From a virus: a stretch of DNA of 42,643 nucleotides. Of the stretch, positions 14,037 to 14,268 are shown piece by piece. A program made the translations under genes and the position numbers. Each line of letters opens with the position of its first letter. Positions within the stretch are counted from its first letter, which is position 1. The stretch lies in the UHGV virus genome UHGV-1882081; one strand, given 5' to 3'. The notes under the pieces were generated by a model. It was not told the origin of the DNA and did not search any database. It saw only the letters and a program-made list of their open reading frames with translations.

Positions 14037-14268
14037 CTGCTGCCGCCTTAGGTTTTCGACCAGGCTTTTTACGCTGTTTTTCTTCTGGCTCTGGCTCTGG
14101 CTCTGGCTCTGGCTCTGGCTCTGCAACATCCTTCAGAAGATCATCAGGATGTGCAAACCAGCCAGCATCCAGATATTCCTGAAGCTCTTCGGCTTTCACG
14201 ATTTCAAAGTCGTATCCAACGCCTTTCCATTTCTTCATGTCGCCATGACGAAATATCATGTGTGTCAT
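14014..14268 (-). CDS. small protein with (Glu-Pro)6 repeat and basic C-terminus, between coat and gp4
   Basis: GGAGA RBS then ATG; [84 protein letters not shown]. Confidence 0.5.
14085..14123. repeat. hexanucleotide tandem repeat (CTGGCT)6 / (GAGCCA)6
   Basis: Six perfect units plus a partial unit; encodes [12 protein letters not shown] in the small ORF on the minus strand. Confidence 0.95.

Follow-up and report, generated by a model that had tools for sequence, protein, structure and literature searches.

Copy-number variation of a Glu-Pro-encoding hexanucleotide repeat in the orf69 homologue of P22-like prophages

In the genome of phage P22, a small open reading frame (ORF), orf69 (NP_059631; NC_002371 6135-6344), is annotated between gene 5, which encodes the coat protein (4804-6096), and gene 4 (6328-6828). 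Its product, MKIAIYKPGGSIMVWGVMAQMKVIDSSELPEYVKDGWLDHPSKLLPVEADDVKPRKGRKPKAVSDADKD, matches the protein family phrog_1175 (E 4.5e-31), which is annotated as 'unknown function'. At an unrelated E. coli locus, O157-10/TR2, the instability of the hexanucleotide GAGCCA is documented: this is the most polymorphic variable-number tandem repeat (VNTR) of E. coli O157, with a diversity index of 92% and a rate of 1.8e-3 changes per generation over strains with 23-43-unit alleles, alleles of up to 13 units being associated with low rates (PMC2246123, PMC3777172). Here we analyze the virus genome UHGV-1882081, a stretch of 42,643 nt (hereafter, the window) that represents a P22-like (Lederbergvirus-type) prophage with the late operon on the minus strand, and in which the homologue of orf69 contains a perfect (GAGCCA)6 microsatellite encoding (Glu-Pro)6. 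The number of units in this tract varies widely among related prophages and phages. We interpret the tract, with a probability of about 72%, as a hypervariable in-frame coding VNTR in a disordered, length-tolerant acidic linker that changes in length by slippage or unequal recombination.

The repeat tract and its variation

The six perfect units span positions 14086-14121 and, on the plus strand, read (TGGCTC)6. The first-pass annotation had placed the tract at 14085-14123, that is, correctly to within 1-2 nt, and had assigned it to a small ORF flanked by the coat gene and gene 4; this assignment holds, and the ORF is a conserved gene matching phrog_1175. Including partial units, Tandem Repeats Finder (TRF) delineates an array at 14084-14123 (period 6, 6.7 copies, 100% matches, score 80), which has the top score in the entire window and is the only array of more than 4.1 copies; the short, perfect units are arranged head to tail, as in coding microsatellites. 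The (EP)6 segment comprises residues 50-61 of the 84-amino-acid product, with 49 residues before it and 23 after it. The repeat also opens ORFs in other frames, denoted here by their translations as SGSG (13973-14182, plus strand), LWLW (13867-14517, plus strand) and QSQS (13536-14129, minus strand), and, as had been pointed out, this inflates the gene 4 ORF, here to a mechanical ORF of 197 amino acids versus the 166 amino acids supported by Pfam and RefSeq. The GenBank record of phage APC_JM3.2 already includes a 'repeat_region' feature in the small ORF; a literature search found no paper on copy-number polymorphism at the locus between the coat gene and gene 4.

A 451-nt query region encompassing the locus was found in 8 phage records and in 217 of the 5426 complete E. 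coli genomes. Unit numbers were read directly in 17 fetched loci, 16 of which have an intact ORF, and in the window; they were implied from the span of the query in 90 sampled E. coli records, and 80 independent viral loci from IMG/VR were analyzed in addition. The 16 intact loci and the window contain 1, 2, 3, 4, 6, 6, 6, 8, 8, 8, 10, 13, 15, 20, 24, 29 and 33 perfect units, and both sides of the tract are intact in the protein of every intact fetched locus. Among the 90 sampled records, the span differed from 451 nt by a whole number of 6-nt steps in 81 and was off by 1 nt in the other nine; among the off-step loci that were fetched, L003, L005 and L009 have a run of five rather than six T in the hairpin described below, and L010, which belongs to a decayed prophage, has a frameshift. 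Lengths implied by the spans range from 1 to 33 unit-equivalents, with a mode at 6, and the IMG/VR loci have 2-15 units. All 95 intact alleles (16 fetched and 79 complete ones from IMG/VR) are in frame, the only frameshifted copy being that in L010, where the shift lies outside the repeat. Isolated phages differ as well: the fetched sequences contain 2 units in Bas106 and 8 each in IME10 and APC_JM3.2, and the spans in Dewey and Louie imply 6 and 5 units, respectively. Thus, rather than being invariant across homologues, the copy number ranges from 1 to 33 units, which bears out the earlier conjecture that the tract varies in length among related prophages, and, as also conjectured, the 6-nt unit keeps the frame in all intact alleles.

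The variation extends to loci that are otherwise identical. Two loci with 33 and 29 units (L001 and L002) show 0 differences in 500 nt of flanking sequence, and the same is the case for two loci with 13 and 6 units (L005 and L009); L016, the locus most closely related to the window, matches it at 98.6% identity over 3.3 kb, yet has 15 units versus 6. With the two pairs that share their flanks being 4 and 7 units apart, the copy number varies faster than point substitutions accumulate.

In the IMG/VR tracts, 499 of the 571 units are identical GAGCCA. The variant units differ by a single base, namely, GAGTCA (ES), GAGACA (ET), GAGCAA (EQ), GATCCA (DP), GAGCTA (EL) and the synonymous GAACCA, and some of these are amplified into runs, such as (ES)5, (ET)4, (DP)4 and (EQ)4, or into a higher-order 24-nt period, ES-EP-EL-EP. 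Amplified runs of variant units are expected from slipped-strand mispairing or unequal recombination, but not from selection at the level of individual residues. Outside the tract, one allele of 93 amino acids (P0003) has a 13-residue tandem duplication at the end of the N-terminal domain, a second kind of slippage or duplication in this small gene.

The small gene, its product and its neighborhood

The small ORF occupies positions 14014-14268 on the minus strand, from an ATG at 14268 to a stop codon at 14014-14016, and encodes 84 amino acids. The ATG is preceded, at a distance of 5 nt, by a Shine-Dalgarno sequence, GGAGA (14278-14274), and is the start chosen by RefSeq in homologous prophages. 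Residues 1-82 of the product align with the entire phrog_1175 profile (positions 1-72 of 72, E 5.3e-37), and the P22 orf69 product aligns with the window protein over the full length; the location between the coat gene and gene 4 with a 3' overlap, the conserved residues of the N-terminal domain and the RKPKA-type tail are likewise those of the phrog_1175 family. The gene order portal-scaffold-coat-ORF-gp4 is retained in a 52%-identical relative (L013). In the E. coli set, 10 of the 13 variable sites in the N-terminal domain are at third codon positions, with 9 synonymous versus 3 non-synonymous codon changes, and across homologues of 31-73% identity, the domain shows a protein-like pattern of conservation; the ORF is intact in all 79 complete IMG/VR copies. 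The profile match, the synteny, the third-position bias and the intact viral copies jointly indicate that the small ORF is a real, conserved gene evolving under protein-level selection. A profile search for a wider family recovered only close relatives among the best 120 matches, leaving the family without extension, and a literature search with 'orf69' and 'P22' returned unrelated ORF69s only, for example, that of the Stx2 phage Sp5, and no functional study.

An AlphaFold2 model built from a 12-sequence alignment predicts an N-terminal folded domain (residues 1-48; 14125-14268) consisting of a beta-hairpin, a helix and a short helix, with block means of the predicted local distance difference test (pLDDT) score of 84-92 over residues 1-40; the conserved residues in this domain are G9, G16, E28, G36, W37, H40 and P41. 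Residues 53-79, with pLDDT below 50, are predicted to form a disordered linker and tail. The C-terminal tail (residues 62-84; 14017-14085), also predicted to be disordered, consists of a basic, Pro-rich motif, KKPGRKPKA, which corresponds in position to KPRKGRKPKA in P22 orf69, followed by an acidic end. In P22 orf69 and in relatives from Klebsiella, Yersinia and other sources, the acidic linker is short and is either non-repetitive or built of a few EP units (0-5 among those relatives). The long perfect array therefore represents an expansion, confined to one lineage, of an ancestral linker that was acidic and rich in Pro.

Database scans of the window protein provided few functional leads: Pfam yielded only a sub-threshold, low-complexity match to trypanosome procyclin, NCBIfam and PADLOC yielded no matches, no solved structure was matched by sequence at E below 0.06, and a BFVD search returned only uncharacterized small phage proteins. 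A search with the N-terminal domain retrieved, in addition to the small-protein family, larger proteins with 3-6 matching stretches each (P0130, P0132, P0134-P0137, P0139-P0141, P0143 and P0144; E 5e-7 to 1e-3), and several of those that were scanned have GIY-YIG/NUMOD3 or weak HNH matches. The tandem module in these proteins, x-I-x-K-x(4)-K-x-I-x(3)-E-L-Q-x-Y-L-D-x-G-W-x-x-G, is not covered by any Pfam family and resembles the strand-helix motif (F/K)xI(V/I)xxxELQxYLDxGW of the N-terminal domain (residues 19-38; 14155-14214), with an hhalign probability of 96% (E 2.7e-9, 20 columns) for the domain against the module alignments. In homing endonucleases of the I-TevI type, C-terminal modules of this kind bind DNA, and by analogy, the strand-helix module of the larger proteins may be DNA-binding. 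In one distant homologue (P0133), the tail RRGRPPKA contains a canonical AT hook, albeit as a weak match below the Pfam cut-off (E 0.047, 14.0 versus 17.4 bits); the window protein has no Pfam match to the AT hook (PF02178), and the P-G-R-K-P stretch of its tail lacks the Arg-Gly-Arg-Pro core. We would give even odds to the guess that the small protein binds nucleic acid through the N-terminal domain and the basic tail.

All neighboring genes of the late operon are on the minus strand. Upstream of the small ORF are the genes for the portal (16533-18698), the scaffold (15608-16519) and, immediately adjacent, the P22-type major coat protein (14313-15608; 431 amino acids; Pfam P22_CoatProtein, E 9.7e-165); downstream are the homologue of gene 4, encoding the head-tail adaptor or packaged-DNA stabilization protein (13536-14036; 166 amino acids; Pfam P22_Tail-4, E 4.3e-58), the gp10 homologue (12117-13535) and the needle gene (11269-12117). 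The RefSeq homologues of gene 4 are 501 nt long, in agreement with a start at 14036. An extended gp4 starting at 14129 and read through the repeat in the QSQS frame was rejected given that the Pfam and RefSeq data fit the 166-amino-acid form and that the ATG at 14129 has no well-spaced Shine-Dalgarno sequence; with only 16 codons between the repeat and the start at 14036, the open frame itself is unremarkable.

The 3' end of the small ORF overlaps gene 4 by 23 nt in the window (stop codon included), 17 nt in P22 and 14 nt in L013. The Shine-Dalgarno sequence of gene 4, UAAGGCGG (14043-14050, minus strand), 6 nt before the ATG at 14036, is embedded in the P-K-A-A codons of the small ORF and is identical in P22; this sequence accounts for part of the conservation of the tail, namely, that of the K-A codons (AAGGC). 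Unlike these codons, the G-R-K residues of the tail are kept between the window and P22 via synonymous differences. The RNA at the start of gene 4 is less structured than shuffled controls (z = +1.26), on which ground obligatory translational coupling through RNA structure was rejected. Because the Shine-Dalgarno sequence is conserved and the RNA around the ribosome-binding site is little structured, we see no sign that the small ORF has to be translated for gene 4 to be expressed. In the minimum free energy (MFE) fold of a 336-nt region, the DAGWFAHP codons (GCUGGCUGGUUUGCACAUCC) pair with the start of the repeat (GGAUGUUGCAGAGCCAGAGCCAG) at about 14105-14170 on the minus strand, possibly by chance.

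The proposal of a terminator hairpin upstream of the small ORF was corroborated as well. A terminator-like hairpin, AGGGAGC-UUCG-GCUCCCU followed by U6 (14283-14305, minus strand), is located 7 nt past the coat stop codon and before the Shine-Dalgarno sequence of the small ORF; the stem-loop extends from 14305 to 14288 and the T6 run from 14288 to 14283, the first T closing the stem. The 7-bp stem with 5 G-C pairs is retained in both the MFE and the centroid folds, and the sequence has the G+C-rich stem-loop directly before a U run that defines an intrinsic terminator. The same hairpin is present in 74 of the 80 IMG/VR loci, with a T run of 4-7 nt and one loop variant, and in L013 (~3966-3988). 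At the corresponding place in P22 (L012 6102-6119), there is a stem of a different sequence, GGGGC-UGCG-GCCCC, which the P22 record annotates as 'stem_loop, putative; similar in location to stem-loops in phage HK97 and phage lambda'. The first-pass annotation had taken the hairpin to suggest that the small ORF is expressed at attenuated levels. In the late operons of lambdoid phages, the Q/gp23 antiterminator modifies transcription such that intrinsic terminators are passed; therefore, the hairpin may act mainly as a 3'-end stabilizer of the coat mRNA.

Rfam and tRNA scans of the window produced no matches. Short imperfect arrays delineated by TRF, with periods of 7, 8, 14 and 24 nt at 28970-29091 and with a period of 21 nt and 2.3 copies at 34842-34890, could be operator or origin iterons of the early region.

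Explanations for the length variation

Under the VNTR interpretation, the linker in the E. coli lineage came to be encoded by identical GAG-CCA units, whole units of which would be gained or lost through slipped-strand mispairing or unequal recombination between the repeats, the most likely mechanism judging from the pattern of units. A unit of two codons implies that each change would keep the frame, both ends of the protein and the overlapping start of gene 4. If the linker is a length-tolerant acidic spacer the exact length of which is of little importance, selection would tolerate nearly any length, such that alleles of 1-33 units could coexist. Several observations weigh against this interpretation in its simplest form. 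In the variant units, the only replacements at the Glu codon are GAA and Asp codons, but Pro is replaced by Q, T, S or L (the changes counted here are not independent of one another), which suggests that the negative charge is constrained and the proline is free, so that the linker would not be wholly neutral. Assemblies of the same or closely related strains share an allele, of 1, 6 or 12 units: this is the case for two strains labeled DH5alpha, two assemblies of E. coli W, AHM8C212RI and AHM8C160RI, and three 0H strains. Because such independent assemblies agree, short and medium alleles are not visibly unstable on laboratory time scales. Furthermore, the mode at 6 with a long right tail could reflect weak length selection as well as mutation bias. 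The two DH5alpha-labeled records (NZ_CP026085.1 1466511-1466961 and NZ_CM135829.1 4534312-4534762) contain the P22-like region with 6 units; a P22-like prophage is unexpected in this K-12 derivative, which suggests that the strains are mislabeled.

An adaptive alternative is that the EP length sets the distance between the N-terminal module and the tail, or the strength of an acidic-basic, DNA-mimic-like autoinhibition, and is retuned to hosts or capsid variants. Two conserved ends joined by a variable spacer, the conserved acidic and free proline positions of the unit, the mode at 6, the resemblance of the N-terminal domain to modules that recur in the DNA-binding halves of proteins similar to homing endonucleases and the canonical RGRP AT hook in the tail of a distant homologue are all compatible with such tuning. 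However, alleles within the 1-33-unit range occur with identical flanks and the same gp4 proteins, P22 orf69, if functional, manages without a repeat, the approximately 30-fold range of tolerated lengths speaks against a tight optimum, and no DNA-binding family model in Pfam or NCBIfam matches the window protein; we consider this possibility unlikely. Another proposal links the repeat to translation through intrinsic ribosome destabilization (IRD), whereby the number of EP units would set the number of ribosomes that finish the ORF and hence, by coupled translation, the production of gp4. The end of the ORF overlaps the start of gene 4 in the window, P22 and L013, and 15 or more units would fill the ribosome exit tunnel of about 30 residues with EP alone, but gene 4 has its own well-spaced Shine-Dalgarno sequence in little-structured RNA, and the tract has no consecutive prolines, so that stalling of the elongation factor P (EF-P) type is not expected. 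Motifs of the EP/DP type, such as EPDP of MgtL, define IRD, but internal segments rich in Asp/Glu and Pro are reported to be silent after about 30 residues (bioRxiv 10.1101/2021.02.02.429294). The window protein does have an Asp/Glu/Pro-rich segment, (EP)6 followed by EE, but this segment starts at residue 50, after 49 others, rather than at the N-terminus, which makes IRD very improbable here. A selectable ruler or rheostat in the general sense, which controls the reach or acidic autoinhibition between a hitherto unrecognized mini DNA-binding module, the ELQxYLDxGW strand-helix unit, and an AT-hook-like tail or, less likely, ribosome completion that sets gp4, appears quite doubtful to us; if real, it would endow a P22-like phage with a mutationally tunable late function.

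The variation could also be viewed as having no bearing on a protein at all, if the ORF is untranslated and the repeat is a non-coding spacer or a DNA or RNA element, such as a leader of gene 4 that is unstructured and free of U. Indeed, the repeat RNA consists of A, G and C only and cannot pair with itself, the tail conservation is partly due to the gene 4 Shine-Dalgarno sequence, and a hexamer keeps the frame regardless of whether it is translated. Nevertheless, the protein-type conservation, third-position bias and confident AlphaFold2 fold of the N-terminal domain, the correctly spaced Shine-Dalgarno sequence, the intact ORF in 79 of 79 viral contigs and the G-R-K residues of the tail, kept via synonymous differences, render an untranslated ORF highly unlikely. 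That the differences in copy number are assembly artefacts of a low-complexity tract might be suspected from the maximum of 15 units in IMG/VR contigs, which are believed to be mostly short-read assemblies, versus 33 in complete genomes, and from the Prokaryotic Genome Annotation Pipeline (PGAP) flagging one long allele as 'incomplete'. This suspicion is extremely hard to sustain given that the longest tract, of 198 nt, is expected to fit within single long reads, that the differences are exact multiples of 6 with all units perfect in the fetched loci, that separately assembled genomes of one strain or of close relatives give the same allele, and that the isolated phages Bas106, IME10, APC_JM3.2, Dewey and Louie vary too. 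Finally, a phase-variation on/off switch was rejected because the unit is a multiple of three and none of the 95 intact alleles is out of frame.

Taken as a coding VNTR in a length-tolerant linker, then, the tract is an ordinary microsatellite within a coding sequence, albeit with an unusually wide range of lengths, and resides in a gene that is conserved in a model phage family. For P22-like prophages, which are represented in about 4% of the complete E. coli genomes, the locus provides a VNTR marker that is ready for use and discriminates strongly, although its practical value is modest. It brings into focus orf69, which is conserved in the late operon of P22. Two conserved ends connected by a linker that tolerates an approximately 30-fold range of lengths constrain models of the function of this protein, and the likeness of the N-terminal domain to homing-endonuclease-like repeat modules is a testable lead towards nucleic-acid binding. 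The repeat also misleads annotation. Apart from the inflated gp4 ORF, PGAP labels an intact 130-amino-acid allele with 29 units (L002 433-678, NZ_CP026199.1) as 'incomplete, missing C-terminus', and some records misname the small protein 'dihydrolipoamide acetyltransferase', presumably due to the Pro/Glu-rich linker (P0019, P0039 and P0042 are among the artefact entries).

Comparison with described systems

In at least 10 other P22-like prophages of E. coli (for example, L014 433-1043 and L015 433-1037), the position between the coat gene and gene 4 is taken by a second class of alleles. These alleles (phrog_3769) encode proteins of about 203 amino acids, which PGAP annotates in fragments only, and share with the window ORF the homologous N-terminal domain, the GAGCCA repeat, here (EP)4-5, and the basic tail, with one substitution in one copy, but differ in containing an extra WDGH domain of about 100 amino acids (PF25311, E 1.5e-39) between the N-terminal domain and the linker. 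A literature search on WDGH yielded nothing relevant. The repeat and the tail thus appear to be a module common to two architectures.

Two well-known proteins offer analogies only. The TonB spacer, with (Glu-Pro)n followed by (Lys-Pro)m, joins two functional ends, and the window protein similarly has alternating Glu-Pro followed by a Lys/Arg/Pro-rich segment; however, it lacks a regular Lys-Pro repeat and is a cytoplasmic phage protein rather than a periplasm-spanning one, and no sequence homology was detected, the Pfam scan of the window at E <= 1 including no TonB family. The gpFI protein of phage lambda is a packaging accessory protein encoded between the capsid gene E and FII that has a charged flexible linker and two ends. 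No sequence or fold similarity between gpFI and the window protein was found; the parallel lies in the location after the capsid gene and a stem-loop, and before the head-completion genes.

The O157-10/TR2 repeat shares with the window tract the unit TGGCTC, the frame GAG-CCA encoding Glu-Pro, and the location inside an ORF. Identity of the two loci was rejected because neither published primer matches the window with 3 or fewer mismatches. In the contig where TR2 was located by primer (L021, IMGVR_UViG_2529293076_000039, 8583-8726), the (GAGCCA)24 array encodes (EP)24 but lies near the C-terminus of an unrelated, AT-rich ORF of 427 amino acids (8462-9745, minus strand) with unrelated flanks; given this sequence context, the shared unit is a matter of convergence or coincidence, not homology, and TR2 serves as a benchmark of how unstable the unit can be. 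With phase-variable contingency loci, the window tract has in common a hypermutable simple-sequence repeat in a gene of a mobile, host-interacting element, but unlike in those loci, a 6-nt unit cannot switch the gene off.

The closest counterpart remains P22 orf69. It differs from the window protein in that it has no tandem repeat, its linker being PVEADDV, and in that the N-terminal domains are only 31% identical. The two genes nevertheless both lie between the coat gene and gene 4, follow a stem-loop located past the coat stop codon and overlap gene 4 at the 3' end, and the two proteins share the E-x(7)-GW-x(2)-HP pattern of the N-terminal domain, an acidic linker and the G-R-K-P-K-A tail.

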